IMG/VR virus record: IMGVR_UViG_2718218131_000010
Location: 1 to 18,400 of that record
DNA: 18,400 nt
Source: a virus
Taxonomy: Duplodnaviria > Heunggongvirae > Uroviricota > Caudoviricetes
Reading direction: 5' to 3' (one strand)
Shown here: piece after piece, positions 1 through 14,821 of the stretch
Layout of the letters: every line of letters starts with the position of its first letter
How positions within the stretch are numbered: position 1 is the first letter of the stretch
The notes under the pieces: model-generated
Databases searched by the model: none
Told to the model about the DNA's origin: nothing
Seen by the model: the letters and a program-made list of their open reading frames with translations, nothing else
Position numbers and translations under genes: made by a program

Positions 1-582
1 ATGAAAGGCGAAGTGAAAGAGCGCGGCATGATTTTTAACGATGAGATGGTCCGGGCAATTCTTGGCGGGAATAAAACACAGACTCGCAGGATTGTTGAAG
101 AAAAATTCTATGGACGGGCAGTGGCCGCAGAGTTGCTTGCCAAGCATTGTCCATATGGTCAACCGGGCGATCGTATTTGGGTTCGCGAAACCTACCGGGT
201 ACATGGCAAAGCGACGGACGTCGCAACGCTGGTTTATCGCGCAAGTGTGCGTAACTCCTGGACAGAACAAACGCACCGGGTTCCGGTCGAGGTTTGTAAT
301 AAACCAGTATCAGAAAAGTGGACGCCATCAATTCACATGCCGCGCTGGGCATCGCGCATTCTTCTGGAAATTACCAACGTGCGCGTTGAGCGGTTGAACG
401 ATATCAGCGAATGCGATGCAAGGACTGAGGGCGCACCAACAGAATCGACCCTCATTGGCGATAAGCATTACCCAGGTTTCCGTAGCCTATGGAAATCAAT
501 TTATGGCGAAGATAGTTGGAACGCTAATCCCTGGGTGTGGGTAATCGAGTTTGAGCGTATTCAGGGGGCAACCAGTGAGTGA
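1..582 (+). CDS. ASCH/PUA-like domain protein (possibly 5' truncated at window edge; alternative start at 28)
   Basis: ORF track 193 aa; N-terminal MIFNDEMVRAILGGNKTQTRR...RIWVRETY resembles the ASCH-fold signature (GxKTxExR followed by beta strand). Stop TGA 580-582 overlaps the next gene start. Family assignment from memory of the motif, not a search. Confidence 0.5.
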   Translation: MKGEVKERGMIFNDEMVRAILGGNKTQTRRIVEEKFYGRAVAAELLAKHCPYGQPGDRIWVRETYRVHGKATDVATLVYRASVRNSWTEQTHRVPVEVCNKPVSEKWTPSIHMPRWASRILLEITNVRVERLNDISECDARTEGAPTESTLIGDKHYPGFRSLWKSIYGEDSWNANPWVWVIEFERIQGATSE

Positions 583-835
583 GTCAAAATGCCAAATTAA
601 TGGCAACAAGATAGAACCGTGCGCGGCGTTGGCACAATCCCTGGAGCATGACGCTGAATACACGACGCGAAAAGGTCTGCTGAAATACAAAATCTATAAC
701 CATGAATTAATTCATTCACGAGACCTGATCATGCTGCGGTCTGGTGAATTTTCTAAATCGCCTATTCGAGTTTCATTTTGCCCGTTCTGTGGTGAAAGTC
801 TGAAAACGTGGGAAGCGGAGGCAACCAGTGAGTAA
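575..835 (+). CDS. small Cys-rich (putative zinc-ribbon) protein, GTG start
   Basis: Frame-2 ORF; likely start GTG 575 preceded by GGGGCAACCA (SD-like); contains CxxxxxxxxxC and CPFC pairs; overlaps upstream stop by 8 nt (translational coupling). Confidence 0.4.
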   Translation: MSESKCQINGNKIEPCAALAQSLEHDAEYTTRKGLLKYKIYNHELIHSRDLIMLRSGEFSKSPIRVSFCPFCGESLKTWEAEATSE

Positions 836-1016
836 CCGTTTTTACATGATGTGCTTGCGTGAAACTGTGGGTAATAACGCCTCATTCCATTGCCATAACG
901 GCAATGGTTACAGTTCTTGGCGCGGCGGAAGCGTTTATGATGCAGAAGCATGGCGAGATGGCTATGAAGCAGGGAAAACGCCTGTCGAAGTATATTGTGA
1001 TGAGTGGGGTGGGTGA
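828..1016 (+). CDS. small hypothetical protein (62 aa), GTG start
   Basis: ORF track; GTG 828 preceded by GGAGGCAACCA; stop 1014-1016 abuts ATG 1017 of the next gene. Confidence 0.35.
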   Translation: MSNRFYMMCLRETVGNNASFHCHNGNGYSSWRGGSVYDAEAWRDGYEAGKTPVEVYCDEWGG

Positions 1017-1745
1017 ATGATTTGCCTTCACAACGCAGACTGCTTTGACATCTTTCCGCAAATCGCCAGCAACTCCGTAGATCTTGTATGTGCCGATATT
1101 CCATATGGAACAACTCGGTGTCGCTGGGATTCTGTTCTCGACCTGCAGTTGATGTGGAAGCAGATTTACCGTATTTCCAAACCGAACGCTGCAATTGTTC
1201 TGTTTTCCGCTCAGCCTTTTACCAGCGTGCTGGTCAACAGCAATCTTCGTGACTGGAAAACAGAATGGATTTGGGAAAAGCCACACGCGACAGGATTTTT
1301 GAACGCAAAAAAACAACCTTTAAGAGCGCATGAAAATATTGAAGTTTTTTACAGAAAGCAACCGACATACAACCCACAGATGACGTATGGGCACGCCAGA
1401 AAAACCTCAACAAGAGGTAGGCTGAATACTGATGTATATGGCGATGCGCTGAAAAAGGTCGTTTACGATTCAACAAGTCGCTATCCGAGAGACGTGCAGA
1501 AATTCTCCAGCGACAAGCAAAAGCAGGCACTTCATTCAACACAAAAGTCACTGGCTCTGGTGAGATATCTGATTGAAACATATAGCAATATTGGCGACAC
1601 GGTGTTGGATTTCACTATGGGTAGCGGAACTACTGGCGTTGCGTGCCAACAATCAGGACGCCGATTTACAGGAATAGAAAAAGATCCAGAAATTTTTCGT
1701 ATCGCATTAGAGCGTATGGGAATTAAACAGGAGCATGCAGCATGA
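1017..1745 (+). CDS. DNA N6-adenine/N4-cytosine methyltransferase (PF01555-like, beta class), orphan
   Basis: 242 aa; N-terminal SVDLVCADIPYG (motif IV, DPPY-like) and C-terminal HSTQKSLALVRYLIETYSNIGDTVLDFTMGSGTTGVACQQSGRRFTGIEKD (motif I FxGxG, AdoMet binding). No adjacent restriction endonuclease gene. Confidence 0.85.
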   Translation: MICLHNADCFDIFPQIASNSVDLVCADIPYGTTRCRWDSVLDLQLMWKQIYRISKPNAAIVLFSAQPFTSVLVNSNLRDWKTEWIWEKPHATGFLNAKKQPLRAHENIEVFYRKQPTYNPQMTYGHARKTSTRGRLNTDVYGDALKKVVYDSTSRYPRDVQKFSSDKQKQALHSTQKSLALVRYLIETYSNIGDTVLDFTMGSGTTGVACQQSGRRFTGIEKDPEIFRIALERMGIKQEHAA

Positions 1746-1763
1746 TTTTTGTGGAGGCAACCA

Positions 1764-1946
1764 GTGAGCGAAATTAACTATCAAGAACTGCGCGAGGCGG
1801 CGGAACAGGCAACGCAAGATGAATGGGTAGCATATATTTTGCCGGTCATAACGGCATTTATCCTGCGCGCACGTCTGAGGGTAGGCATTGCGGATACTTT
1901 ATTGACTGGCCTGGCGTCTGTCAGGGGCGGGAGAGCATCAGCATGA
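1764..1946 (+). CDS. small hypothetical protein (60 aa), GTG start; N-terminus paralogous to ORF 2560-2985
   Basis: GTG 1764 preceded by GGAGGCAACCA; first ~12 residues VSEINYQELREAA match VSKIDYQVLREAA of the 2560 gene; stop overlaps ATG 1943 (ATGA). Confidence 0.3.
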   Translation: MSEINYQELREAAEQATQDEWVAYILPVITAFILRARLRVGIADTLLTGLASVRGGRASA

Positions 1947-2563
1947 GCATCAGAACCTACGCAGTGAATTGCAATGACGCATGGCTAAACACCGAAGGTG
2001 ATGACATCTCCGGCTCATACGTTAAGTACAAAGACCATCAGGAAGTGGTTGCCGCTCTTGAGGCCAAGTGCGCGGCGCTGGCAGCGGAGAATGCAAGACT
2101 GAAGGCCGGGGCTATGTATTTCTCATATGGCTCTGAATTTAGTTTCGAGTGTCACAAAACTGCTGAGGAGGCTATCGCTGCTGCTGAGGCTGCAATTGAC
2201 GACTATAGAGGCGATGCTTGCGATGGATGGAGCGAAGAGGTCGAAAGCATTTGCTGGGGGGTAATTATTCAGCAGGCAACCAAGGTCGGTGAACGCAAGA
2301 AGAGGAAATGCGACAGAGTATCACCATGGATTGAAAGAGTTTGTGATTATGAGCTTCGACCTAATGTCGAAACCCCAGCCACCGATGCTTTCCTTGCTGA
2401 AGTTCGGGCGCAGGGCGTGGAGATGCTGGCAAAAAATCATCAAAGTATCGTCAATGCACTTAAGGGGGATTCTTTATTTTCTGATGGTGAATACCGGCAT
2501 GCAATTATCGCTTCCGCAGCAACATCTTTCGCCGCCCAGCTTCGCAAAGGAGGCAACCAGTGA
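1943..2563 (+). CDS. hypothetical protein (206 aa)
   Basis: ATG 1943 with GGGAG about 10 nt upstream; the track ORF 1823-2563 is trimmed to this start; stop TGA 2561-2563 overlaps GTG 2560 of the next gene. Confidence 0.5.
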   Translation: MSIRTYAVNCNDAWLNTEGDDISGSYVKYKDHQEVVAALEAKCAALAAENARLKAGAMYFSYGSEFSFECHKTAEEAIAAAEAAIDDYRGDACDGWSEEVESICWGVIIQQATKVGERKKRKCDRVSPWIERVCDYELRPNVETPATDAFLAEVRAQGVEMLAKNHQSIVNALKGDSLFSDGEYRHAIIASAATSFAAQLRKGGNQ

Positions 2564-2985
2564 GCAAGATTGACTATCAGGTACTGCGTGAGGCAGCAGT
2601 AGCAATTGAAACAGTAGCAACGCCTCAAAAATTGCTGGCATTTCGTATGAAAGTCACACCTCAGGTTGTGCTGGCACTACTGGATGAACGGGAAGCAGAC
2701 AAAAAGCGCATTGCAGAACTGGAAGCTCGGGAAATAAAACCAGCCAAAGGTGAAGTTCTTGTCGTTGTTTCTGGTTTTACTGGTTGCGGAAAAAGCGCCA
2801 TTGCCGGGGAAATAGAAATCGCGATGAAGGCTATTGGTGTACCGGTTCAGTGGACTAATGGCGATGCAGAAAAGCGCATGACTGGCGCTGACTGGCTGAC
2901 TGCGATTGAGATGTACAAACCAACTGTGCGCATCGTGGAAGTTAATGTGCCCCGCGCCGCAGGCATTCGCATCAAAGGAGAGTGA
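2560..2985 (+). CDS. hypothetical protein (141 aa) with Walker-A-like GFTGCGKS motif
   Basis: GTG start in the conserved GGAGGCAACCAGTGAG junction; motif VVVSGFTGCGKSA fits G-x4-GKS, but the protein is short for an NTPase and no Walker B was seen. Confidence 0.5.
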   Translation: MSKIDYQVLREAAVAIETVATPQKLLAFRMKVTPQVVLALLDEREADKKRIAELEAREIKPAKGEVLVVVSGFTGCGKSAIAGEIEIAMKAIGVPVQWTNGDAEKRMTGADWLTAIEMYKPTVRIVEVNVPRAAGIRIKGE

Positions 2986-2986
2986 T

Positions 2987-3502
2987 ATGGCGTTAACACA
3001 CCACGAACTCTGTCAGATTGCGTACAAGTTCCTTAAGCGCAACGGGTTCAAGGTTTGTTTTCATGACCGCTTTATAGCTGTAACCAGTACCGGAGAACAG
3101 CCAGATGCTATGGGATTCAGAAATTCAGCATCATGCCTGATAGAGGCGAAGTGTTCTCGTGCTGACTTGTTAGCAGATAGAAAAAAGCGTTTTCGTAAAA
3201 ATCCGTCTCTTGGAATGGGCGACTGGCGATTCTTTATTAGTGAGCCGGGAATTATTTCAATTGAGGATTTACCACCTGGCTGGGGGTTACTTCACGTTGT
3301 TAACGGAAGAGTACGGAAAGTACATGGGTGGCCCAAGGGTAATTGCTGTTGGGGTAATCCTGACGATAAGCCATTTACTGGAAATAAGCAGGTTGAATGC
3401 GATTACATGTTATCTGCATTAAGGCGCATGGAGTTGAGAGGGCACCTTAATGAAATATATGACGGTGTAATTGTTAATAAGAAAGAAGGAAACGCGGCAT
3501 GA
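2987..3502 (+). CDS. PD-(D/E)xK nuclease-fold protein (MmcB-like?), 171 aa
   Basis: ATG 2987 with AAAGGAGAG RBS; motif ...GEQPDAMGF...CLIEAKCSRADLL fits a D...(D/E)xK restriction-endonuclease-like core. Family call is tentative. Confidence 0.45.
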   Translation: MALTHHELCQIAYKFLKRNGFKVCFHDRFIAVTSTGEQPDAMGFRNSASCLIEAKCSRADLLADRKKRFRKNPSLGMGDWRFFISEPGIISIEDLPPGWGLLHVVNGRVRKVHGWPKGNCCWGNPDDKPFTGNKQVECDYMLSALRRMELRGHLNEIYDGVIVNKKEGNAA

Positions 3503-4485
3503 TCACTATTACCAAAGAGCGACTACTGACAATCAAGCAGTGGCGCGAAACATACGGACCTGGTAGCAACGTTGTACTGCCAGCAGAAGAAGCGGAAGAA
3601 CTGGCGCGGATTGCACTGGCATCACTGGAAGCAGATCCAGTTGCTTATATTTTCAAACATCCGGCCGGGAAATTATTCTGGGCTTTAACGGATGAAAGCA
3701 ATAAAGAGCAAGCTGACGTTATTCCTGTTTATGCTGCCGCGCCTGCGTCGGTTGTGCCGGATAATGCATCAGAGCCTCTTGCTTATGCTTACAAAGAGCT
3801 TACGCCTGAGATTATGCGCAACCATTTAGCTGTATTCGAGCGATATGGAATAGCCCCAAACGATAGCTCTACCACAATTCAGGCACTGCGAATCGCGCTG
3901 GATGGCATAGAGCGGAGCGGCGCCATGCTTCATGGTGCCGAACCTGTAAGCCAAACTTACAAGTTGCTAGTTAATACACCTTGCCAAGATGCGCCAGCCC
4001 ATATCTGGCTGCAAACAGCTGGAGTATGGCCAGAAGATGGCGAGTTAAGCGAATTAACGTGGTGCAGCCACAATCAGCACCATGATGACACGCTATATGT
4101 TCGAGCTGACCTTGTGAATGGCAACTATCCGGATATTCCGGATAGTTCGGTGCCAGGGCCAGGAAAGGGCGTCACCGGTGAACGTATCCGCATTAAACCG
4201 CATGTTTATCGCGAACTGGTTAACCGTCTCCACGATACAGCGATCAAGTGTGCGGGCACCCAGCAATTACGAGAAAGAATTAGCCGTGTTTTGGGCGACG
4301 TTATTACGCCAGATCATCATAAACAAGCCGAGAAAAGTGGCTTGGAAAGGTGTCACCTTGAGGCGGCATTAAACATTAAGCCGGGGCATACGCTTGGCAT
4401 TATTGATGCACTATTGGTTCATAAGATGGCCAGGGCTTTATTGCCGCTGGTGGATGCTGGCGATACAAGCGAGGGTGAAGTATGA
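3499..4485 (+). CDS. hypothetical protein (328 aa)
   Basis: ORF track; ATGA overlap with upstream stop; AAGAAGGAAACG RBS. Confidence 0.6.
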   Translation: MITITKERLLTIKQWRETYGPGSNVVLPAEEAEELARIALASLEADPVAYIFKHPAGKLFWALTDESNKEQADVIPVYAAAPASVVPDNASEPLAYAYKELTPEIMRNHLAVFERYGIAPNDSSTTIQALRIALDGIERSGAMLHGAEPVSQTYKLLVNTPCQDAPAHIWLQTAGVWPEDGELSELTWCSHNQHHDDTLYVRADLVNGNYPDIPDSSVPGPGKGVTGERIRIKPHVYRELVNRLHDTAIKCAGTQQLRERISRVLGDVITPDHHKQAEKSGLERCHLEAALNIKPGHTLGIIDALLVHKMARALLPLVDAGDTSEGEV

Positions 4486-4844
4486 GAGTTGCAGATCACA
4501 TCAAACACCTTGAAAGAATTATCGAAAACGGTGAACTCTTAAGAGATCAGATGAGACGCACGGCAGAAGTCAGAGAGGCGATAATCCGCAGTCAGGCTGG
4601 TAAATTAAAGCAATTGTCAGAGATTAACGCGCTATACAAGAACAGACGTAACCGGGCGGCGCTGCGGCTTCAGAAAGCACGTAATGAAATTAAATTGGTG
4701 GAGGCAAAACTGAAAAAACAGATTCAGCGTTACGATCAGCAAGATGCTTTTTATGCCGCCATCAAGGCGGCTGCTAATGAAATAGGCATCTGGAAGTTGC
4801 TGGTGGAGAAAGCAAAGACGAAGTTAAATGCCAACGAAAGCTGA
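4482..4844 (+). CDS. hypothetical coiled-coil protein (120 aa)
   Basis: ORF track; ATGA overlap with upstream gene; K/R/E-rich heptad-like composition. Confidence 0.55.
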   Translation: MRVADHIKHLERIIENGELLRDQMRRTAEVREAIIRSQAGKLKQLSEINALYKNRRNRAALRLQKARNEIKLVEAKLKKQIQRYDQQDAFYAAIKAAANEIGIWKLLVEKAKTKLNANES

Positions 4845-4918
4845 ACTACAGGTACCCACCAGCACATACAGAAAATGATTGTTTCCACATCAAGGAGATT
4901 TTAATGTTTCACTGAACA

Positions 4919-5056
4919 TTAAGTAAGCCAGTGCATAATTCCATTTTTTACTGACCTTAAAAGCAAAATCAAAACGATGATGAGGATGATCGCCAGAATC
5001 TGGCTAATAACAGGCGCATCTAAAAATGCACTCAGGAACTGAAAAAAAGCAGTCAT
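4919..5056 (-). CDS. candidate 45-aa hydrophobic single-TM peptide (MTAFFQFLSAFLDAPVISQILAIILIIVLILLLRSVKNGIMHWLT)
   Basis: Hand-translated minus-strand ORF below the 60-aa track cutoff; ATG at 5056-5054 with AGGA 9 nt upstream; one strongly hydrophobic helix followed by basic residues; stop at 4921-4919. Confidence 0.3.
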   Translation of the reverse strand: MTAFFQFLSAFLDAPVISQILAIILIIVLILLLRSVKNGIMHWLT

Positions 5057-5097
5057 TAAGGTGGTTCCTTGTCAAATGTAAAGGAGCACTTGCTCAC

Positions 5098-5126
5098 GTT
5101 GACGTAGAAACCCAACCCCTATATAG
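5098..5126 (+). promoter_or_regulatory. near-consensus sigma70 promoter (TTGACG-17 bp-TATAGT)
   Basis: -35 TTGACG 5098-5103, 17-bp spacer, -10 TATAGT 5121-5126; divergent from the small peptide gene; may drive hot via a long leader or a small RNA/ORF (5155-5352). Confidence 0.4.
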
Positions 5127-5505
5127 TTGGATTCGGTGAAAGAAAGTCGTTAACGTGAGCTTACGGCACATGTTTTCGGAACAACATCAGGGAACGGCTA
5201 ATTCCTTGATGCGGATGGGGTCTGTAATGCAGACCCTATCTATTAACGTCATGATTGCATCTCAAATTTTCTCCTTATCTTCATTAATCAAAATTCATTT
5301 CATTTGTGAAACATCACAATATTTAGAAAATGGCCCTCTTGCAAGTGCATAACTTTGTGGATAAATCAGGAAGAAAAAAGTTGATTCTGCGCACGGCAAG
5401 GCAGATAAGCTGTGCACAAAAATCAATGGGAGAAGAAAAAAAATTAAAAGTTACTTTGCTGGTTAAATAATAGTCGTTACTCAATTATTCTGGATGGGAT
5501 TTGAT

Positions 5506-5757
5506 ATGCACGATTGGAATATTGCAGCTAAAAGTCAGGAAGAACGGGATAAGGTTAACGTTGATCTGGCTGCCAGCGGTGTGGCGTACAAAGAGCGATT
5601 GAACATACCTGTCATAGCTGAACAGGTAGCCCGCGAGCAACCAGAGAATCTGCGCACCTATTTCATGGAACGGCTACGGCACTACCGGCAGTTAAGCCTC
5701 CAGTTGCCAAAAGGGAGCGATCCGGCATATCAGAAAGATGATGCCGTAAAGAAATAG
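5506..5757 (+). CDS. hot: Hot, homolog of DNA polymerase III theta subunit (HolE)
   Basis: [43 protein letters not shown] closely parallels E. coli HolE ([43 protein letters not shown]). Start at 5506 preferred (GGGA SD); in-frame alternative ATG at 5494. Confidence 0.85.
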
Positions 5758-5763
5758 CGGTAG

Positions 5764-6336
5764 TTAACCGTTTTGAACTTCTCGTATCCTGGCAATGACA
5801 GCTTCATGTTGGGCTTGGATAGCGGCTTTTTCGTTTTCAAGTCGGGCAATAGACATCTCTAATTCTTTGCTGTACCAGGCGAGTTGGGCCAGGTTCATCC
5901 GGTTGTGGTCGAGAGTTGGAGACACTTCGACGCGATCCCTTTCTTCCTGTTTTAATGAGAAGAGATTCATCTCATCCCTTGAGGAAAATTCAGCAACAAT
6001 TTCTTGTTGATGATCCGGTCGCTGCGGCATCCTCGCCAGTATAAATGGCGGTTCTTTTGAAAACATGAATGTCGGTTCAGAACGTGTTTTCACCCATCTA
6101 GCCTGCTGTCTTTCGGCAAGTTCACAGGCTTCATCATAGTTATTTGCCAAACCAAGCACGGATGGACGGTCCCACGCGCCACCATTCAGACAATAAACAA
6201 CAATTTTCCCGTCATGTTCTGTAACCCCATAGGGATGGTCCCACCAGGCGTCCAGCTGAGCTTTAGAGCGTTTCTCGTTAGGAGTGCAGTCAAAATTTTT
6301 GGGCAATACAGGATCGAGAGGAATGCGATTAGGCAT
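5764..6336 (-). CDS. hypothetical protein (190 aa), divergent from humD; position matches P1 lxr
   Basis: ORF track; lies between hot and humD as in the P1 gene order hot-lxr-humD (recalled, not verified by sequence). Confidence 0.55.
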   Translation of the reverse strand: MPNRIPLDPVLPKNFDCTPNEKRSKAQLDAWWDHPYGVTEHDGKIVVYCLNGGAWDRPSVLGLANNYDEACELAERQQARWVKTRSEPTFMFSKEPPFILARMPQRPDHQQEIVAEFSSRDEMNLFSLKQEERDRVEVSPTLDHNRMNLAQLAWYSKELEMSIARLENEKAAIQAQHEAVIARIREVQNG

Positions 6337-6471
6337 AGCTAATTCCTTATTAACTGATTGGCAACGAGGTTACGCTGATCCGTTGGTGATGAATAGTAGC
6401 AAAGAGCACAAAATCATCAGCGGTGGTTGATGTACGTAACGCGTTTGCACCAAAGGTGTCCCTTTAATGTA

Positions 6472-6491
6472 TACTGTATAAATGAACAGTA
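6472..6491. promoter_or_regulatory. LexA (SOS) box TACTGTATAAATGAACAGTA
   Basis: Matches the CTGT-N8-ACAG consensus exactly; 20 bp upstream of humD ATG; overlaps a TATAAA/TATACT -10 candidate with TTGCAC as a possible -35 at 6445-6450. Confidence 0.85.
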
Positions 6492-6510
6492 TTATTGAGG
6501 TGAAAACGCT

Positions 6511-6900
6511 ATGGGCTTCCCTTCTCCTGCGGCGGATTATGTTGAAAGCAGAATTTCTCTTGATCAGCAACTAATCAGGCATCCATCAGCGACCTACTTC
6601 ATGCGGGCGGCAGACAGCCATCACCGTGAGGGAATATTGCAGGGTGCTTTGCTGGTGGTTGATTCCTCGCTTACTCCGGTTGATGGTTCGCTGCTTGTCT
6701 GCGCTATGGAGGGTGAATATCGCATAAAGAGATACCGAAAGTATCCGCGCCAGCACCTGGAGGATTTAAGCACCGGGAAGAAAGAGGCGTTACCAGTAGA
6801 TGACGATGGTTACACGGGTAGTAATGCCGTGTTTGGTGTGATCACTCATGTCATCAATGATGCCCGGAGTGGGGAGTTTGATGATTGTCCGGTCATTTAA
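6511..6900 (+). CDS. humD: HumD, UmuD' homolog (translesion synthesis accessory)
   Basis: 129 aa; UmuD-like peptidase S24 C-terminal region (LLVCAMEGEYRIKRY...VFGVITHVIN); LexA box immediately upstream. Confidence 0.9.
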   Translation: MGFPSPAADYVESRISLDQQLIRHPSATYFMRAADSHHREGILQGALLVVDSSLTPVDGSLLVCAMEGEYRIKRYRKYPRQHLEDLSTGKKEALPVDDDGYTGSNAVFGVITHVINDARSGEFDDCPVI

Positions 6901-6972
6901 GCTGCAAAGTGCTGGTGCTTTATGCCTGTGAAGTTTATAATTGTGTACACATAACGAGTACACGAGGTGTTT

Positions 6973-7194
6973 ATGCAATCCATTAACTTCCGTACCGCGC
7001 GCGGCAACCTTTCTGAAGTGCTCAACAATGTTGAAGCCGGGGAAGAGGTTGAAATCACCCGCAGAGGCCGTGAGCCAGCAGTAATTGTCAGCAAGGCTAC
7101 TTTTGAAGCCTACAAAAAAGCGGCGCTGGATGCTGAATTTGCATCCCTGTTTGACACCCTGGACTCCACCAACAAGGAACTGGTTAACCGATAA
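6973..7194 (+). CDS. phd: Phd antitoxin (prevent host death)
   Basis: [49 protein letters not shown]... matches P1 Phd; TAATG overlap with doc. Confidence 0.95.
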
Positions 7195-7574
7195 TGAGGC
7201 ATATATCACCGGAAGAACTTATTGCGCTTCATGATGCGAATATAAACCGCTACGGCGGCTTGCCGGGAATGTCAGATCCGGGTAGGGCAGAGGCCATTAT
7301 CGGGAGAGTTCAGGCCAGAGTTGCCTACGAAGAGATCACCGACCTTTTCGAAGTCTCCGCCACCTACCTGGTGGCTACAGCGAGAGGGCATATATTCAAT
7401 GATGCCAATAAGCGTACCGCGCTAAACAGTGCGCTGTTATTTCTACGCCGTAACGGGGTGCAGGTATTTGATTCACCTGAACTGGCAGACCTTACTGTAG
7501 GCGCTGCGACTGGCGAGATATCTGTATCTTCTGTCGCCGACACGTTACGTAGATTGTATGGTTCTGCGGAGTAG
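7194..7574 (+). CDS. doc: Doc toxin (death on curing, Fic-fold kinase)
   Basis: 126 aa [22 protein letters not shown]...[11 protein letters not shown]... matches P1 Doc; 1-nt overlap with the phd stop. Confidence 0.95.
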
Positions 7575-7578
7575 ATTA

Positions 7579-7758
7579 ATGGCACGCAAATACAACAAAT
7601 TGTCCCGTGAAGCGTTAAAGATGCTTCTTGATGGCGTGAGTCGCCGCAAGGTAAAGCAATACCTGGTTGGTAAGCAAATTGGTGCCAGGACCGCTATTGC
7701 TGTGTTATGCCGTCAGGAAATGGTTGTGCTTAAACAGAGAATGCCGGGCAGCAGATAA
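7579..7758 (+). CDS. pdcA: small basic protein downstream of doc (pdcA by synteny)
   Basis: ATG 7579 with GGAG 7 nt upstream (track ORF begins at 7558 inside doc); symbol assigned from P1 gene order only. Confidence 0.5.
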   Translation: MARKYNKLSREALKMLLDGVSRRKVKQYLVGKQIGARTAIAVLCRQEMVVLKQRMPGSR

Positions 7759-7785
7759 AGCCCAATCAGTGATGAAAGGTGTGAT

Positions 7786-8829
7786 GTGAAAGCCGTAATT
7801 ACTCCCTTTGTACAAAAAGTGCTTGGCGTCGCCACATTCAAAGTGGATCAGGAAGTCAGAAAGCTGGTGGAGGCTGGCCGTAAATTTATTATGGAGCCGG
7901 TGCCGCGTGAGTTAATCGAGCACATGGACGACGGCCTCGTTGTTTCCGAGCAAACTATGGCAACAAATGAGGCGTTGCAGCCGTTTTTTAACAGCGATGA
8001 ACTGTTTCGCCGTATTGGTGGAATTGACTCGCTGGTGGCGTGGTTGCGCAGGAAAGAGGGGCAATGCCAGGCCGCAGATCGTAGTTGGTGTGACAACCAT
8101 ATTGTCCACGCTGAACGAGACAATAGCGCGGTGTTGTTGTGCTGGCATCACGATAACCATTACCGGATGCGTGGTTTTAATGAGCTGAAAGAAACGCTGC
8201 ATAATAATCGCGTTAACTGGATACTGGATGTCGCCCGTCAGGAAATGGGGCTTTCAGATGGCCATGATTTAAGTATTCAGGAACTGTGCTGGTGGGCTTT
8301 CATGCGCAACATGATGCACCTGATGCCGGAAGAAGTTTGCCGTATATCAATAAATAAGATGAAAGCCGCAACGCAGGATAGCGGACCTCTGAAAGAGGCG
8401 GATATTCGCCCGTATGACGATCGCGCTACAGCATATGTTCAGATGATGGAAGAACGCGCCGCGCCGATGCGTGCAAAAGTATGCCCTGTGGATGTAGACT
8501 CCGACCCTGGCATGGCGCATTTCAAAATACCAAAACTTCAATCGCTAAAATTGCCCGAGTACATGGACTTTGTGGCTTCCCGTCCATGCTGTGGCTGTGG
8601 AGCTGCGGGAGCTGGCGCTCACATTACGCCTTATATCGTTCGTCATAGTCGATTATGCGCGCATGACATTTATGCTATTCCTCTGTGCCAGTCATGCCAG
8701 CGTGATATTGAGCGTGACCTCGATAATTGGGAGAAGACGCACGGTAGGCTGGCGATGCATCAACGATTGTTCTTTGATTACGCGCTTGGAGTCGGCGCTA
8801 TCACAAGTCACTCGTCGAGCGTTAGATAA
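7786..8829 (+). CDS. pdcB: hypothetical protein 347 aa (pdcB by synteny); C-terminal Cys/His-rich region
   Basis: GTG start 7786 with AAAGG RBS; C-terminus contains [12 protein letters not shown]...C...H...C..C, a possible metal-binding/HNH-like region; symbol from P1 gene order. Confidence 0.6.
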
Positions 8830-8830
8830 A

Positions 8831-8847
8831 ATTGCTCTAATGTATTG
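8831..8847 (+). promoter_or_regulatory. C1 repressor operator-like site upstream of lpa (ATTGCTCTAATGTATTG)
   Basis: 13/17 match to the P1 C1 operator consensus ATTGCTCTAATAAATTT, including the invariant ATTGCTCTAAT core. Confidence 0.6.
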
Positions 8848-8917
8848 CTATTTCTTTAATCGAGGGTATTATATTCCACGTTGATTAGTTGACATGGGCT
8901 AATCAGTAGGTGACAGG

Positions 8918-9370
8918 ATGTTACTTAACTGGCAGGGACGCCACTTCATGGAAATAAATCACTCACGAATAACATCGTACGAGATTGCGGATTACATGAT
9001 CCGCACTAAATCTCTTCTATCAGCGAAAGAACTCGCAGCAATTCTTGAAAAGGAATACCCGCATCTGGATGTCGATAAGCGCGATGTTTATCTGCGCTTA
9101 AAGGCTATCGCTGTGTCTAAGTATTCGTCTGTTTTGATTGATGACAGTACACGCCCACGTAGATTTCAGATCCACTCTCTGAATCCTGAATTCTTTCGCC
9201 GCAGCCGCGCTCCGCGCCGGTTTGATGAAAAACTCCAGAACGAACTCTATATGACGCAGGACGAAAAGGAACGCCGGGAGCACCAGCCTTGGGTAATGGC
9301 GCGTCAACTTTTCAATAAGGTGGCCCGTCAGCACCGTCATTACGGTAATGCCACATCCGCACGTATCTGA
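8918..9370 (+). CDS. lpa: Lpa, late promoter activator
   Basis: 150-aa ORF directly preceded by a C1 operator and followed by pacA, as in P1; AGGTGA RBS before ATG 8918. Confidence 0.75.
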   Translation: MLLNWQGRHFMEINHSRITSYEIADYMIRTKSLLSAKELAAILEKEYPHLDVDKRDVYLRLKAIAVSKYSSVLIDDSTRPRRFQIHSLNPEFFRRSRAPRRFDEKLQNELYMTQDEKERREHQPWVMARQLFNKVARQHRHYGNATSARI

Positions 9371-9380
9371 TTGATTGCTT

Positions 9381-9399
9381 GCCCGTTCCGGGCCTTTTG
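9381..9399 (+). terminator. putative rho-independent terminator after lpa
   Basis: GCCCG-TTC-CGGGC stem-loop followed by CTTTTG. Confidence 0.4.
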
Positions 9400-9455
9400 A
9401 CATGTGACTTTCGTTACCCTCGCGTCAAAAAGAGTTTTTACGAAAGGAAGCATAA

Positions 9456-10649
9456 GTGACCTGGGACGATCACAAGAAGAATTTTGCTCGCCTGGCGCGA
9501 GATGGTGGTTACACCATCGCACAGTATGCCGCCGAGTTTAATCTTAACCCTAATACCGCACGTCGTTATCTCCGTGCCTTCAAAGAAGACACCAGGACTA
9601 CGGACAGCCGCAAGCCAAATAAGCCAGTCAGGAAGCCACTAAAAAGCATGATCATTGATCACTCTAATGATCAACATGCAGGTGATCACATTGCGGCTGA
9701 AATAGCGGAAAAACAAAGAGTTAATGCCGTTGTCAGTGCCGCAGTCGAGAATGTGAAGCGCCAAAATAAGCGCATAAATGATCGTTCAGATGATCATGAC
9801 GTGATCACCCGCGCCCACCGGACCTTACGTGATCGCCTGGAACGCGACACCCTGGATGATGATGGTGAACGCTTTGAATTCGAAGTTGGCGATTACCTGA
9901 TAGATAACGTTGAAGCGCGGAAGGCCGCGCGCGCTATGTTGCGTCGGTCCGGGGCCGATGTTCTGGAAACCACTCTTCTGGAAAAGTCTCTTTCTCATCT
10001 CCTTATGCTGGAGAATGCCAGGGATACGTGTATTCGCCTGGTGCAGGAAATGCGCGATCAGCAAAAAGACGATGATGAAGGTACTCCGCCTGAATACCGT
10101 ATCGCGAGCATGCTAAACAGCTGTTCCGCGCAGATAAGCAGCCTGATCAACACCATTTACAGCATCCGGAATAACTATCGAAAAGAAAGCCGGGAGGCGG
10201 AAAAGCACGCTTTGTCTATGGGGCAAGCTGGCATTGTTAAGCTGGCATACGAACGAAAGCGTGAAAATAACTGGTCAGTGCTGGAAGCAGCTGAATTCAT
10301 CGAGGCGCATGGCGGGAAAGTTCCGCCCCTGATGCTGGAGCAAATCAAAGCCGATCTGCGTGCTCCTAAGACCAATACCGATGATGAGGAAAGGCAGACA
10401 GCCGTCGGCGGCCCTTCTCTTGAAGATCTGGACAAAGTTGCGCGAGAACGGGCCGCCAACCGCCGCGCCGATGCCGCATTGTGGATTGAGCAGCGTAGGG
10501 AAGAAATCGCCGATATCGTTGATACAGGCGGTTATGGAGATGTTGATACTGAAGGTGTATCAAACGACCCATGGCTGGAACAAGACCTGGACGAAGACGA
10601 GGAGGAAGACGAAGAAGTTACCCGCAAGCTATACGGGGATGATGATTAA
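9456..10649 (+). CDS. pacA: PacA, terminase small/pac-recognition subunit
   Basis: 397 aa; contains the pac site internally; acidic C-terminal tail; GTG start with AAGGAAG RBS. Confidence 0.9.
9649..9807. other. pac packaging site: 4 + 3 TGATC(A/G) hexamers with Dam GATC cores
   Basis: TGATCA at 9649, 9656, 9668, 9683 and TGATCG/TGATCA at 9779, 9791, 9802 inside pacA; matches the known bipartite P1 pac architecture. Confidence 0.85.
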
Positions 10650-12133
10650 TGGCCAGAAGTTGCGTAACGGATCCACGTTGGCGCGAGCTGGTGGCGCTAT
10701 ATCGTTATGACTGGATTGCGGCCGCTGATGTTTTGTTTGGGAAGACACCAACCTGGCAGCAGGATGAGATCATTGAGTCCACGCAGCAGGACGGCAGTTG
10801 GACAAGTGTGACCTCCGGCCATGGTACTGGTAAGTCGGATATGACGAGTATCATTGCAATACTCTTCATCATGTTTTTCCCCGGCGCTCGCGTCATTCTG
10901 GTCGCTAACAAAAGACAGCAAGTCCTTGATGGTATTTTCAAATATATAAAGAGCAATTGGGCTACTGCTGTTAGCAGATTCCCGTGGTTGTCGAAGTATT
11001 TCATTCTTACAGAAACGTCTTTTTTTGAGGTGACTGGCAAGGGTGTTTGGACAATATTGATAAAGTCCTGTCGCCCCGGAAATGAGGAGGCGTTGGCTGG
11101 TGAACACGCCGATCATCTCTTGTATATCATCGACGAAGCGTCGGGTGTGAGTGATAAAGCATTCAGTGTGATAACAGGTGCGCTGACCGGTAAGGATAAC
11201 CGTATTCTGCTTCTTTCCCAGCCTACGCGACCTTCAGGCTATTTCTACGATTCACACCACAGACTAGCTATTCGCCCGGGAAATCCTGATGGATTGTTTA
11301 CTGCGATAATACTGAATAGTGAAGAATCTCCGCTTGTAGATGCAAAATTTATACGAGCAAAACTTGCGGAGTATGGCGGTCGTGATAACCCCATGTACAT
11401 GATCAAAGTACGTGGTGAATTTCCCAAATCTCAAGATGGCTTTCTTCTTGGTCGTGATGAGGTTGAGCGGGCGACGCGGCGAAAGGTCAAGATTGCCAAA
11501 GGATGGGGCTGGGTTGCATGTGTTGACGTTGCTGGTGGCACAGGACGAGATAAGTCCGTTATTAATATCATGATGGTGTCCGGCCAGCGAAATAAACGCC
11601 GTGTAATCAACTATCGTATGCTGGAATACACAGACGTTACAGAAACGCAGTTAGCCGCCAAGATTTTCGCAGAATGTAACCCAGAACGGTTCCCGAACAT
11701 AACCATAGCTATTGATGGCGATGGCTTGGGGAAATCGACGGCTGATCTGATGTACGAACGCTATGGTATTACCGTCCAGCGTATCCGCTGGGGTAAAAAG
11801 ATGCACAGCCGTGAAGATAAAAGCCTTTATTTCGATATGCGCGCTTTCGCGAATATTCAGGCGGCAGAAGCTGTAAAATCAGGGCGTATGCGGCTTGATA
11901 AGGGGGCTGCGACTATAGAGGAAGCATCAAAGATACCGGTCGGGATAAATTCCGCAGGTCAATGGAAGGTGATGTCAAAGGAAGATATGAAGAAAAAACT
12001 CAACCTGCACTCACCGGACCATTGGGATACATATTGTTTCGCTATGTTGGCGAACTATGTACCCCAAGATGAAGTGCTTAGCGTCGAAGACGAAGCGCAG
12101 GTTGATGAAGCTCTGGCATGGCTTAATGAGTAA
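10649..12133 (+). CDS. pacB: PacB, terminase large subunit
   Basis: 494 aa; start overlaps the pacA stop (TAATG); position and size as in P1. Confidence 0.9.
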
Positions 12134-12136
12134 AAA

Positions 12137-12153
12137 CTTGCTCTAATAAATTG
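12137..12153 (+). promoter_or_regulatory. C1 operator-like site (CTTGCTCTAATAAATTG)
   Basis: 15/17 match to the C1 operator consensus; sits 4 bp after the pacB stop at the head of the antirepressor module. Confidence 0.65.
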
Positions 12154-12154
12154 T

Positions 12155-12310
12155 GTTTTTTTGGCTGCCGATGTTACATTGAACCTGAACTCTTGCGCCT
12201 TGAGGCATTTTCGGTTTATGCTTATCAGGCACCTCATTAAAACGGGTGCCGGGATTGGAACCCCGGATAATGCAAAAGGCGACACAGACGCCAAAAGCGT
12301 CTTTTTTTGT
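12155..12310 (+). ncRNA. candidate C1-controlled small RNA or leader segment ending at an intrinsic terminator
   Basis: No ORF; contains GGCUGCC (12164-12170) and a hairpin CCGGG-AUUGGAAC-CCCGG (12249-12266); ends with GACGC-CAAAA-GCGTC followed by T7 (12287-12308). Confidence 0.3.
12287..12308 (+). terminator. rho-independent terminator (GACGCCAAAAGCGTC + TTTTTTT)
   Basis: 5-bp GC stem, 5-nt loop, 7 T run; flanked by GACACA / TGTGTC extending the stem. Confidence 0.6.
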
Positions 12311-12339
12311 GTCATGCCATCGCACAGCCATACGTAGCA

Positions 12340-12493
12340 CATAGCTCCGAGATCAATGGTAGTGCTGGCTGGGCTGCCGAAAGGCAGGCCGGTTCCCTTT
12401 TGCGCCGGTAGTTCCAACCCAGTCAGTGCTACCGCCATTGAGATTGGAACCTCACGCGGTAGCTCCTAAAGTTAGCAAAAGGAGGCTGCCATT
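12340..12493 (+). promoter_or_regulatory. structured leader upstream of the icd-like ORF with anti-SD and kissing-loop elements
   Basis: Local hairpin CUGCC-GAAA-GGCAG (12373-12387); hairpin CGGTAG...CTACCG with GUUCCAAC in its loop (12405-12435); second AUUGGAACC (12443-12451); GGCUGCC overlapping the SD GGAGG (12481-12490). Confidence 0.4.
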
Positions 12494-12715
12494 ATGGCTA
12501 CTATCCCTACCCCAACTCACCCTGAATTTATCTGGCGCTTTTACTCCTGCCAGAAACGTCACTATCACTTCGTTATCGCAACAACAGAAGATGAGGCCCG
12601 CTCTCAGCTTCCTGACGCCCCATGTATTTTCTCTGCCCGTTTTTCCACTGATTCACGCAATTCTCTCAGTTACTGGTGCCTCCCTGTTAACGCTTCTGCT
12701 CAGGAGGGACTATGA
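12494..12715 (+). CDS. small ORF translationally coupled to the antirepressor (icd-like position)
   Basis: 73 aa; GGAGG 8 nt upstream; stop TGA overlaps the ant ATG (ATGA), the same coupling architecture as icd-ant in P1 immI. Confidence 0.45.
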   Translation: MATIPTPTHPEFIWRFYSCQKRHYHFVIATTEDEARSQLPDAPCIFSARFSTDSRNSLSYWCLPVNASAQEGL

Positions 12716-13824
12716 GAACGTCATTAGTCACCCGTGAAGAGATGATCGAGGCAATTGAACGGCACACTGCCTGTATCAGTACCAGGGATATACCGGGCGT
12801 TATTGCCAACTACTTCATGATCACCAAACAACTTTACCGGAGAAAGGACAAGAACGCGGTTCACCGCATCCTGCTAACCGATATCCGTGAATACCTGCTC
12901 GAACAGGGTCATCTGAATTACGCAACCGTCGCAGCCGAAGCACGCAAGGAGGCACACAGAATGAAAGCAACTAACGTTAAATCAGAAAAAATTCATGCAC
13001 CTTCAGTTCAGGAATCGGAACTGGTGGTTGTTCAGAATCAGCCGGATGAAATTCCCGTTCTGGAATGGCAGGGAGTACGTGTCGTGACAACCGAAACTCT
13101 TGCTAGAGGGTATGGGGTCGATGAAGCCAATATTCGCAACAATTTGTCTCGCAACCTTGACCGCTTTGAAGAAGGTAAGCATTACTTTCTTCTAACTGGT
13201 TTAAAATTAAGAGAATTTAAGAACAGAGTAACCGGAAGTTACTCTGTTGGTAAGAACGCCAGAAGCCTTACACTCTGGACAGAGCGCGGCGCTGCACGCA
13301 TGTCTAAGATCGTGGACACAAATGAAGCATGGGCATTCTTTGAAAAACTGGAAGACAGCTACTTCCGGCAAAAAGAACAGCAACCGGTTGCAATCCCCCA
13401 GACGCTTCCAGAAGCTCTGCGCCTGGCTGCCGAACTGGCTGAACAAAAGCAGCTTCTGGAACAGAAAGCCCACCAGCTAAATCAGCAGCTGGTGGCCGCC
13501 GCTCCTAAAGTCGATTTTGCCGACCGGGTATCAGTAGCTAAAGGGATCCTGATTGGGAATTTTGCAAAGGTTGTTGGACTTAAGCAAAACGCGCTGTTTG
13601 CCTGGTTACGGGAGAACGGCATCCTGATAGCGTCCGGTGGACGTAAAAATGTGCCGTTCCAGCAGTACATCAATGCGGGGTATTTCACGGTGAAAGAAGT
13701 GGTGCTGGATGATGAAGATGGCTACCAGATACGGTTGACGCCTCAATTAACGGGTAAAGGCCAGCAGTGGTTGACGCGTAAACTGCTCGATGCTGGCTTG
13801 TTAAAACCGGTGGCGGCTGAATAA
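12712..13824 (+). CDS. phage antirepressor (Ant-like; ORF6N N-terminal and KilA-C/ANT C-terminal domains)
   Basis: 370 aa; VRVVTTETLARGYGVDEANIRNNLSRNLDRFEEGKHYF...LTLWTERGAARMSKIVDTNEAWAFFEKL (ORF6N-like) and FAKVVGLKQNALFAWLRENGIL...VPFQQYINAGYFTVKE (KilA-C/ANT-like). Confidence 0.75.
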   Translation: MRTSLVTREEMIEAIERHTACISTRDIPGVIANYFMITKQLYRRKDKNAVHRILLTDIREYLLEQGHLNYATVAAEARKEAHRMKATNVKSEKIHAPSVQESELVVVQNQPDEIPVLEWQGVRVVTTETLARGYGVDEANIRNNLSRNLDRFEEGKHYFLLTGLKLREFKNRVTGSYSVGKNARSLTLWTERGAARMSKIVDTNEAWAFFEKLEDSYFRQKEQQPVAIPQTLPEALRLAAELAEQKQLLEQKAHQLNQQLVAAAPKVDFADRVSVAKGILIGNFAKVVGLKQNALFAWLRENGILIASGGRKNVPFQQYINAGYFTVKEVVLDDEDGYQIRLTPQLTGKGQQWLTRKLLDAGLLKPVAAE

Positions 13825-13833
13825 TGGAAGAAT

Positions 13834-13862
13834 GCCCGGTTGATGCCGGGCATAATTTATTG
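13834..13862. terminator. convergent terminator hairpin between ant-like gene and c1
   Basis: GCCCGG-TTGATG-CCGGGC followed by ATAATTTATT; overlaps the c1 stop codon region. Confidence 0.5.
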
Positions 13863-14708
13863 CGCGCTTTCGGGGTTGTCGTTTACTGGCTGCCCCTTCT
13901 TGGTTTTACGGCTGCGCGTAACTGATGCGGCTGACTTAACCTTTTTCTCTTCGCGAGTGATGGCAATTTGTTTTTTTACATTTTCAATATCTGCCAGGCG
14001 ATATATTTTTGCTTGCGGCCAGCGGTCGCAGATGATCGGTTCTATGGAGTCATAAAGGCTAAATTTTGCTTTTTCGAATTCACCGTTGATGATAATTCCA
14101 TCACGGAGAGTTTCATCGCAGATAAACACGCCACACAGTGGCACATGGTAACTAACTGATTTACCATCATTGTAGTTAGGGCTACTGGAAATGTAGTGGA
14201 CGCGCAGCATTGTTTCGCTAAAGCCGTGTACGCGCATACGGAATTTTTCATCCTCCGGGTACTGCTTCATTAGCTCTTTTGTTGCTTCCAGGTTCTCTAT
14301 GTATTTCGCACTGTGCTCATTGATCCCCGCGCTTTTTTGGATGCGAATGTCCTTATCAATCAGATGAATAATGCGGCCAGCGGTCATGTTGACGCTGTTC
14401 ACAGCTTCTGTCTGATAAGTTGTAACCTTACGCACACCGCGAAGGATGTTAGGCACAGGATATAAAATAGTCTTTGGGATATTGAGATCTGGGTACTGTT
14501 CCAGTTCCCGCGCCATTAAAGTCCATTTATCAATTTCTGCCTGAATGCTGTCCGTTTCTTTGAACGGCAGAACGACAACCGGGCGTACAGGACGACCGTC
14601 GCTGGCGGCATCAACGTGTTGGGCGCGTGCAACAGCTTTTTTTAGAAAGAGATCCCTGAAGCTGACGAACTCCTGGTACAGTTGTTCGCCGTAGACATAA
14701 TTTATCAT
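13857..14708 (-). CDS. c1: C1 repressor of lysogeny
   Basis: 283 aa MINYVYGEQLYQEFVSFRDLFLKK... matches P1 C1 as recalled; multiple C1 operators in the vicinity. Confidence 0.95.
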   Translation of the reverse strand: MINYVYGEQLYQEFVSFRDLFLKKAVARAQHVDAASDGRPVRPVVVLPFKETDSIQAEIDKWTLMARELEQYPDLNIPKTILYPVPNILRGVRKVTTYQTEAVNSVNMTAGRIIHLIDKDIRIQKSAGINEHSAKYIENLEATKELMKQYPEDEKFRMRVHGFSETMLRVHYISSSPNYNDGKSVSYHVPLCGVFICDETLRDGIIINGEFEKAKFSLYDSIEPIICDRWPQAKIYRLADIENVKKQIAITREEKKVKSAASVTRSRKTKKGQPVNDNPESAQ

Positions 14709-14802
14709 TGATCCTCCTCCAGAATTGACATGGCCAACAACTCACAGCGGATAACACTGAGAGTTGTTGGGCACCATTATAGAAGGATCTAACGAAAATA
14801 AT

Positions 14803-14819: not shown

Positions 14820-14821
14820 TA

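Follow-up and report, generated by a model that had tools for sequence, protein, structure and literature searches.

Characterized relatives of the methyltransferase

In the whole branch of PF01555-type DNA methyltransferases (MTases) whose catalytic motif reads D-aliphatic-P-Y, only one pair of near-identical enzymes has been characterized, M.Phi145I and M.Phi93I. The gene for M.Phi145I lies between terS and terL (781-1638 of accession KM091444) in phi145, a lactococcal phage of the 936 type. Single-molecule real-time (SMRT) sequencing and nisin-induced expression established that this enzyme makes GGWG(m6A), where m6A is N6-methyladenine, and that it blocks HphI (Murphy et al. 2014, PMC4190342). 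The relative described here is encoded at positions 1017-1745 of an 18,400-nucleotide stretch of viral DNA (positions 1 to 18,400 of IMG/VR record IMGVR_UViG_2718218131_000010, a member of the Caudoviricetes), the whole of which is called the window. The 242-amino-acid protein, referred to below as the MTase, aligns with M.Phi145I over its residues 4-242 at 38% identity (E=1e-58). It is probably an intact orphan β-class phage enzyme, borne on a cassette, that protects phage DNA against restriction in the lytic phase and is unrelated in function to the ASCH-type gene of the same operon. A literature search for DIPY and DLPY methyltransferases found nothing relevant, and the active relative was reached through tblastn phage matches, which led to lactococcal phages.

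M.Phi145I and M.Phi93I share with the MTase their PF01555 subfamily, the order of their motifs, a D-L/I-P-Y-G-T-T segment, and the loss of both the proline and the phenylalanine of the LDPF motif. The corresponding motifs of M.Phi145I are CDLPYGTT, HPTQKP and VLDNCAGSFTT. All of these enzymes are orphan and phage-borne, and M.Phi145I is expressed with phage lytic genes, a timing that we infer for the MTase as well. M.Phi145I differs by an insertion of about 30 amino acids in the central target recognition domain (TRD), so the target of the MTase is probably not GGWGA. Its gene is flanked by the two terminase genes in a virulent phage, whereas the MTase gene is part of an early operon of accessory genes in a temperate phage-plasmid, and the enzyme reads HPTQKP where the MTase reads HSTQKS.

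The best matches among solved structures are M1.HpyAVI (Protein Data Bank entries 5HEK/5HFJ, E=3e-15) and M.MboIIA (1G60, E=1e-12). Both are N6-adenine enzymes, and like the MTase they are of the β class and of similar size (232-260 amino acids). Unlike it, they have a canonical DPPY motif and a phenylalanine at the first position of FxGxG, they belong to bacterial restriction-modification (R-M) systems, and their identity to the MTase is low outside motifs X and I. M1.HpyAVI reads HPTQKS and shares the terminal serine of the MTase. M.MboIIA reads HITPKP and LDCFMGSG, and dispenses with two of the three prolines that are usually taken to be conserved.

Two further groups of enzymes offer partial parallels. 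M.EcoGII and M.EcoGI resemble the MTase in being orphan, PF01555-type and enterobacterial prophage-borne. They are silent in the lysogen and have been proposed to act on induction, and they differ from the MTase in their length (349 amino acids), their canonical DPPY motif and their lack of specificity (PMC5778455). M.EcoGII was considered as the closest known enzyme and rejected, since its length and motif show that it is not a close relative. The rRNA adenine-N6 methyltransferases Erm (NIPY) and KsgA/DIMT1 (Dim1; NLPY) have, like the MTase, an aliphatic residue where the first proline would stand. They belong to another family with another motif order, act on RNA and begin the motif with asparagine, and are a mechanistic precedent only. 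Rare NLPY variants also appear in a survey of REBASE gold-standard enzymes.

Family membership and motif assignment

An initial annotation of the window had proposed a PF01555-type MTase and had singled out the strings DIPYG, HSTQKS and LDFT, in each of which a normally conserved proline is replaced. Profile searches confirm the family. The protein matches PF01555 with E=6.7e-28 and 98.6 bits (cut-off 26.7) across profile positions 1-220 of 221, and it matches the PADLOC MTase_II profile PDLC03251 with E=6.2e-72. MT-A70 (PF05063) is absent among its Pfam matches at E≤0.01, where only PF01555 and a sub-threshold AviRa match are found.

Residue-by-residue alignment to solved β-class enzymes shows that the three strings and their proline positions had been read correctly. 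On the plus strand, the motif IV catalytic loop D27-I28-P29-Y30-G31 (1095-1109) lies opposite the DPPY of M1.HpyAVI, M.MboIIA and 9c3u. The motif X region H173-S174-T-Q-K-S178 (1533-1550, plus strand) lies opposite HPTQK(P/S), and the motif I loop for S-adenosylmethionine (AdoMet), L197-D-F199-T200-M-G202-S-G204 (1605-1628, plus strand), lies opposite LDPF/LDCF-MGSG. The order is IV, TRD, X/I, with the catalytic motif before the AdoMet motif, as in other β-class enzymes. Two canonical features are missing. The pattern (D/N/S)-P-P-(Y/F/W) fails at its second position, which is isoleucine, while D, P and Y are retained. The phenylalanine of FxGxG, which stacks on the adenine of AdoMet, is replaced by T200 (aligned with F195 of M1.HpyAVI); F199 stands one residue before this position, and G202 and G204 are present.

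The cofactor contacts defined in M1.HpyAVI are conserved. Mutagenesis of M1.HpyAVI has mapped AdoMet contacts to D8, D29, H168, S198, T200 and E216, with the motif X histidine touching the AdoMet carboxylate (PMC5173035). These residues align with D8, D27, H173, S203, T205 and E221 of the MTase, all of which are kept. Amino-MTase chemistry of the M.TaqI type provides the basis for a proposed mechanism, in which the target adenine would be flipped into a pocket lined by D27, P29, Y30 and the main-chain carbonyl of residue 28, and the methyl group of AdoMet would pass to N6. Methyl transfer of this kind should not depend on the side chain at position 28, which fits the use of NIPY and NLPY as catalytic motifs by Erm and KsgA/DIMT1. 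By analogy with its characterized relatives, the product of the MTase is most likely N6-methyladenine.

Variation of the motifs within the subfamily

Conservation was tallied in two sets of homologues, with all of which the MTase is collinear over its full length. The close set consists of 120 clusters at 73-99% identity from prophages of Klebsiella, Salmonella, Cronobacter, Citrobacter and E. coli. The distant set comes from an exhaustive HMMER search over 1.84 billion cluster representatives that returned 1,956 clusters (clustered at 50% identity) at E≤1e-30; the best 150 of these, at 39-59% identity, were tallied. By this sampling, the subfamily is very large and mostly phage- or prophage-borne.

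An aliphatic residue at position 28 is the majority state in both sets. Motif IV of the close homologues reads DIPYG in 114 clusters, DVPYG in five and DTPYG in one, and D-[LIMV]-P-Y is found in 119 of the 120. In the distant set, position 28 is leucine in 90 clusters, proline in 44, methionine and isoleucine in five each, and valine in two (aliphatic in 102 of 150). Motif I reads LDFTMGSG in nearly all close homologues. Among the distant ones, position 199 is asparagine (58), phenylalanine (45) or proline (19), and position 200 is threonine (75), cysteine (46), alanine (14) or phenylalanine (8), the first three together accounting for 135 of 150. D27, H173 and E221 each reach 90% conservation or more across the subfamily. 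Its signature, as read from these tallies, is D-(L/I/M/V)-P-Y-G with LD-(N/F)-(T/C)-MGSG, and the DPPY and LDPF-x-GSG forms are a minority.

The initial annotation took the missing prolines as an anomaly or a possible sign of degeneracy, and allowed that DIPY might instead prove to be a common variant of an active subfamily. The tallies and the activity of M.Phi145I essentially establish the latter, with LDFT as the norm rather than an exception. Because an aliphatic position 28 is the majority state and is also found in M.Phi145I, the textbook consensus for motif IV is too narrow and the MTase is no outlier. A D-(L/I/V/M)-P-Y motif should not lead motif-based screens to mark an enzyme as degenerate, since DPPY, HPTQKP and LDPF-x-GSG are all too restrictive for this phage subfamily.

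The motif X region also varies. Close homologues read HPTQKP (102) or HSTQKP (18), and none reads HSTQKS. Position 174 of the distant homologues is proline in 114 clusters and serine in eight. Ser174 segregates with one allele of the central region, which is presumed to be the TRD. Where close homologues have Pro174, their identity to the MTase is 45-75% at amino acids 121-180, compared with 80-100% in most flanking 20-residue windows. The segregation of HSTQK and HPTQK with these alleles suggests that TRDs have been exchanged and that at least two specificities exist. The two central-region alleles (amino acids ~121-180, window ~1377-1556) can be seen among the enterobacterial homologues by comparing the MTase with the Klebsiella proteins P0012 and P0040.

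A serine allele at position 178

Position 178 is the sole site with at least 90% conservation at which the MTase deviates from its subfamily. It is proline in all 120 close homologues and in 145 of the 150 distant ones, where threonine (2), glutamine (1) and serine (1) also occur. The serine codon, TCA at 1548-1550, reflects a single C-to-T change that converts HSTQKP to HSTQKS. This is the only amino-acid difference from the copies in Escherichia phage JL22 and in a P22-like prophage of E. coli O114:H49, from which the gene is separated by one non-synonymous and one synonymous change. Pro178 is present in all four copies checked, namely those of JL22, the O114 prophage, E. coli E94 and protein P0001.

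The MTase gene occurs in 17 of 5,426 complete E. coli genomes. The Ser178 allele is found in five chicken-derived genomes only, four of which have consecutive strain and accession numbers that suggest a single project. The twelve other complete genomes carry related copies with at least 99% nucleotide identity. Judged from these comparisons, Ser178 is the only real peculiarity of the MTase and is private to its lineage. The natural pair of Pro178 and Ser178 alleles provides a ready-made test of what the conserved proline does.

For the gene as a whole, Nei-Gojobori ratios of non-synonymous to synonymous substitution (dN/dS) are 0.071 against the K. michiganensis homologue and 0.061 against the Salmonella copy, values that indicate strong purifying selection. 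The protein encoded in the window is predicted to be an intact enzyme of a D-aliphatic-P-Y-G subfamily that includes an experimentally active member.

Orphan status and probable lytic-phase expression

No restriction endonuclease gene adjoins the MTase gene, either here or in the six distinct other homologue contexts examined, and PADLOC detects no defense partner in its operon. The proposal that the MTase is an orphan without a cognate restriction enzyme is upheld by these loci. In P1-like, P22-like and lambdoid contexts, the neighbors of its homologues are Ead/Ea22, DUF551, Nin, and recombination and replication genes. The prophage homologues from Klebsiella, Salmonella and Citrobacter belong to early operons that have replication or recombination genes on one side and nin/Q or xis/int on the other, and always with ATGA-type overlaps.

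Expression appears to be governed by the phage repressor. A C1 operator that is annotated in phage P7, Op(hea), is conserved ~180 bp upstream of the first gene of the operon in a plasmid identical to this part of the window. Its conservation indicates that the operon would be silent in the lysogen and turned on during lytic growth. The MTase would then methylate replicating phage DNA at a short motif and shield it from restriction enzymes with overlapping sites. By analogy with M.Phi145I, anti-restriction protection of phage DNA in lytic growth is most likely the role of the MTase, and it is the most plausible of the functions suggested at the outset. The same upstream region of the identical plasmid (locus L018, 2306-2500) contains, between the C1 operator and the first gene, a GC-rich hairpin (ACATGCCGCAAGGCGCGGCATGT) and a 44-amino-acid hydrophobic open reading frame (ORF) (MNTAFKIIMAAIYFWLFSITFGGIVAHG) that is conserved in P7 and JL22.

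The phage-plasmid locus and its translationally coupled genes

The window is classed, from its gene content and matches, as a P1/P7-like phage-plasmid. Its first 4.5 kb are 98.8% identical to JL22, a P1-like phage-plasmid, and also match P7 piecewise. Over the first 4.9 kb, identity is 100% both to a plasmid from an E. coli isolated from chicken and to a record labeled as the chromosome of strain PK8241. The remainder is P1 backbone (hot, lxr, humD, phd-doc, pdcB, lpa, pacAB, an antirepressor gene, c1 and cre). The MTase belongs to a four-gene locus at 1-1745 that directly follows pap in JL22 and P7 and corresponds to the pmgT-humD region. This region counts among the eight 'highly variable regions' described for P1-like phage-plasmids. 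The authors of the JL22 study had already noted the cluster gp99-gp100-gp101-adsM-ra22-gp104 there as a replacement (PMC9603915). As a discovery the MTase offers little, since it adds another orphan phage methyltransferase to a region already known to be hypervariable.

All four genes are on the plus strand, and their stops and starts overlap or abut in the way first annotated. ORF1 (1-582, 193 amino acids) begins with an ATG at the first base of the window, which places its promoter outside. It belongs to the P1-family backbone and to a protein family that includes P1 PmgT and P7 Upf86.8. ORF2 (575-835) has a GTG start that overlaps the ORF1 stop by 8 nucleotides (GTGAGTGA). Its 86-amino-acid product contains four cysteines (a C-terminal CPFC and two near the N-terminus), matches phrog_4030 (E=1.3e-43), and is 98.8% identical to its homologue P7 Upf87.4 and 100% identical to JL22 gp100. 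By this conservation ORF2 is a backbone gene coupled to ORF1, not a part of the cassette described below. ORF3 (828-1016) also starts with GTG, overlaps the ORF2 stop by 8 nucleotides (GTGAGTAA), and encodes 62 amino acids with three cysteines. The MTase ATG abuts its TGA.

ORF3 is an N-terminal remnant of a Upf87.6-like gene. Its amino acids 1-57 are 58.6% identical to the N-terminus of the 214-amino-acid P7 Upf87.6. Its PHROG matches are split between phrog_2457 (amino acids 1-30) and phrog_519 (amino acids 30-61), and a chimera of two families was considered; this idea was dropped because 57 of the 62 residues align with the N-terminus of the single P7 protein, as expected of a truncated remnant. 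The counterparts in JL22 (4828-4980) and the O114 prophage (5922-6074) are 40 nucleotides shorter, frame-shifted, and 50 amino acids long. Both versions nevertheless end at or over the MTase ATG, which suggests that selection acts only on translational coupling and not on the peptide. ORF3 probably serves only to bring ribosomes to the MTase start. The earlier description of ORF2 and ORF3 as two tiny Cys-rich genes is correct in that both ORFs exist, but 'Cys-rich' describes them weakly and ORF3 is a remnant rather than a dedicated small protein.

A linker-bracketed cassette

A 16-mer, GGAGGCAACCAGTGAG, combines a Shine-Dalgarno sequence with a GTG start and overlaps the upstream stop. It occurs four times in the window, compared to 0.01 expected copies, each time on the plus strand. 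Copy 1 (564-579; GGGGGCAACCAGTGAG, one mismatch) supplies the Shine-Dalgarno sequence and GTG at the ORF1/ORF2 junction. Copy 2 (817-832; GGAGGCAACCAGTGAG) marks the left boundary of a cassette made up of the small ORF and the MTase gene. Copy 3 (1753-1768) marks its right boundary and provides the Shine-Dalgarno sequence and GTG of an Ead/Ea22-like fragment (1764-1946). Copy 4 (2549-2564) lies at the junction of an ORF at 1943-2563 and an Ead/Ea22-like gene at 2560-2985, where it is read in another frame than copies 1 and 2. Such reading in different frames implies that the linker is conserved at the nucleotide level.

Exact copies of the linker bracket the cassette in the window (817 and 1753), in JL22 (4817 and 5713) and in the O114:H49 P22-like prophage (5911 and 6807). 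The prophage carries the cassette in its early-left 'ea' region, in the order erf/rad52, abc, DUF2737, cassette, Ead/Ea22, DUF551, xis. DNA identity of the window to other P1-like phages ends at ~nucleotide 917, and P7 has a full 214-amino-acid Upf87.6 at the same position and no MTase. The linker looks like a shared site for recombination and translational coupling by which accessory genes are shuffled. By these comparisons, the MTase arrived as a ~0.9 kb cassette, consisting of the gene remnant and the MTase gene, in the hypervariable pmgT-humD region. This arrangement is a clean example of accessory-gene movement between P22-like prophages and P1-like phage-plasmids. A 253-amino-acid variant of the MTase, found in the E. 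coli E94 prophage (6022-6783) and as protein P0001, has lost its stop codon, reads through the linker (…HAALNFVETTSEQD) and overlaps the next gene.

An ASCH fold in the ORF1 family

ASCH domains have a PUA-like fold that binds modified bases, and characterized members hydrolyze N4-acetylcytidine (ac4C). The initial label of ORF1 as ASCH-like is borne out at the level of the fold by structure prediction, by an octapeptide motif and by profile matches of its homologues. ORF1 itself has no Pfam match at E≤10, including to PF04266. Of 15 diverse homologues, seven hit PF04266 at E≤1, the best at 1.2e-4, and this is the only family to recur among them. Distant homologues in phages carry the labels ASCH, RNA-binding or PmgT, and the Prokaryotic Genome Annotation Pipeline (PGAP) names the ORF1 orthologue 'ASCH domain-containing protein'. 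An AlphaFold2 model made from 18 near-identical homologues has a mean predicted local distance difference test score (pLDDT) of 42. This score rises to 84.7 with a 128-sequence alignment that was obtained from a search seeded with a distant homologue. The protein has an ASCH/PUA-like β-barrel fold.

The residues of the presumed active site are well conserved. The ORF1 octapeptide G23-N-K25-T-Q-T28-R-R30 corresponds to the threonine-type (YqfB-type) ASCH motif GxKxxTxR. K25, T28 and R30 are invariant in the diverse 15-sequence alignment. Across the 128 aligned sequences K25 and E143 never vary, and T28 and R30 are each kept in 90% or more of them. ORF1 also carries an invariant E143-G144. YqfB and the ASCH N4-acetylcytidine amidohydrolases share this octapeptide with ORF1, and a weak hidden Markov model (HMM) alignment places K21, T24, R26 and E74 of YqfB on K25, T28, R30 and E143 of ORF1. 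Mutagenesis has shown that these YqfB residues matter for catalysis. YqfB is much shorter (103 versus 193 amino acids), with two large insertions in ORF1, which belongs to the phage family of P1 PmgT and P7 Upf86.8 and, unlike YqfB, lacks a Pfam ASCH match of its own.

Matches to the ORF1 family come from 368 phage records that span Salinibacter, Pseudomonas and Vibrio. Given its motif, ORF1 could be a phage N4-acylcytosine or ac4C hydrolase. The RefSeq label 'DNA primase' for the P7 homologue is almost certainly wrong. An ASCH fold with YqfB-type catalytic residues gives the widespread PmgT family a function that can be tested.

Alternative interpretations

The Ser178 allele might be hypomorphic or dead. 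In this scenario P178S and S174 together disable AdoMet binding, and a single clonal phage-plasmid lineage carries the gene as decaying cargo. The distant set retains Pro178 at 97% and the close set at 100%, the substitution is the only residue that separates the protein from the JL22 and prophage copies, and the allele is confined to five chicken isolates, four of them likely from one project. Several gene remnants and PGAP-flagged pseudogenes in the neighboring region are also what decay would predict. Against this, the ORF is full length and undamaged apart from one non-synonymous and one synonymous change relative to the Pro178 allele, active M1.HpyAVI naturally has serine at the equivalent position (HPTQKS), and residue 178 falls at a helix start, where serine would make a good N-cap. 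Substantial impairment is rather unlikely on balance. It is improbable that the remodeled pocket, with its D-aliphatic-P-Y motif and no FxGxG phenylalanine, serves a non-standard substrate in the enterobacterial clade, such as single-stranded DNA, RNA, near-nonspecific adenine or N4-cytosine. Motif IV does resemble the N-I/L-P-Y of rRNA adenine methyltransferases, the enzyme is small (242 amino acids) with a short central TRD, and its nearest solved relative, M1.HpyAVI, is annotated as DpnA-like and reported to be promiscuous. M.EcoGII further illustrates that prophage β-class enzymes can be non-specific and act on RNA. However, the DLPY enzyme M.Phi145I is a sequence-specific m6A methyltransferase of double-stranded DNA, the MTase is homologous to DNA methyltransferases throughout, and the two central-region alleles of the enterobacterial genes form a pattern typical of sequence-specific enzymes that diversify their targets. 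We give equally little credence to the variant proposal that the enterobacterial clade rebuilt its pocket for a new property (action on single-stranded intermediates of replication or packaging, action on RNA, or relaxed specificity), with P178S as a tuning variant.

Two further alternatives assign a partner to the MTase. The initial annotation described the MTase as translationally linked to the ASCH-like protein, and the two might act together as, for example, a reader or eraser of one mark coupled to the writer of another. They share a predicted operon with coupled reading frames, the ASCH fold is suited to modified bases, and a DNA MTase of another type lies within ~2 kb of the PmgT-like ASCH gene at three of the 12 unrelated phage loci. 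The distribution of the two genes does not support such a module, because HMM scans of the fetched loci find them together only in P1-like elements. P7 has the ASCH gene and ORF2 and no MTase, nine MTase loci outside P1-like elements (six distinct contexts) have no ASCH-like ORF within 4-6 kb, the twelve ASCH loci have no MTase of this subfamily, and the recombination boundaries of the cassette leave out ORF1 and ORF2. A functional two-enzyme module is very improbable. The co-operonic arrangement is better read as an accident of mosaic recombination, with ORF1 as an unrelated backbone gene. Least credible of all is that the MTase is half of an R-M pair with the ORF at 2987-3502, which lies 1.2 kb downstream in the same orientation and contains, by eye, a D...E-x-K pattern (QPDAMGF…LIEAKC) reminiscent of PD-(D/E)xK nucleases. 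P7, which has no MTase, keeps this ORF at 99.4% identity, and the prophage loci with the MTase do not contain it. Searches of Pfam, NCBIfam and PADLOC with the ORF gave no match, and PGAP flags part of it as frameshifted. Its candidacy as a cognate restriction enzyme was rejected on distribution.

An intact orphan enzyme that protects phage DNA in lytic growth fits the evidence best, and several points weigh against it. Methylation data in the subfamily come only from relatives that are at most 40% identical to the MTase. Although T200 at the position of the stacking phenylalanine is a feature of the subfamily, it makes the cofactor pocket unlike that of every solved structure. P178S could lower AdoMet binding, as the neighboring histidine contacts the cofactor, and a D-type motif IV does not strictly rule out N4-cytosine specificity. 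C1 control is deduced from the P7 annotation of sequence beyond the window, the protective role is argued by analogy with M.Phi145I, and the gene is rare among complete E. coli genomes.

Additional observations on neighboring genes

The DNA MTases found near PmgT-like ASCH genes in unrelated phages belong to other families (Dam-like, C5 and unclassified) and lie at L005 1063-2792, L006 114-2204 and L014 2226-2810. In two further phages, HNH endonuclease genes adjoin the PmgT-like ASCH gene. The proximity of ASCH genes to MTase or HNH genes in such phages may reflect the usual content of early regions.

Downstream of the cassette, the ORF at 1764-1946 encodes 60 amino acids that comprise only the conserved N-terminus of Ead/Ea22 proteins (VSEINYQELREAAE…). 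The ORF at 1943-2563, which is joined to it by an ATGA overlap, encodes an unrelated protein of 206 amino acids, so that a mosaic junction lies just past the linker. A frameshift within an Ea22-like gene was considered here and dropped, because both the PGAP annotation and the overlapping ATGA at 1943 speak for two distinct ORFs. The 171-amino-acid product of the ORF at 2987-3502 is 99.4% identical to P7 Upf89.0 and has a 42%-identical relative in Vibrio phage Cla. At 3499-4485, a 328-amino-acid 'EaA' ORF seems to join, in frame, an N-terminal DUF551 portion to an unrelated C-terminal one, and PGAP annotates it as two partial pseudogenes. Much farther along the window, between pacB and c1, a 370-amino-acid protein encoded at 12712-13824 contains ORF6N and KilAC (antirepressor) domains and has weak PADLOC matches to the candidate defense family PDC-S05 (E=1.3e-7).

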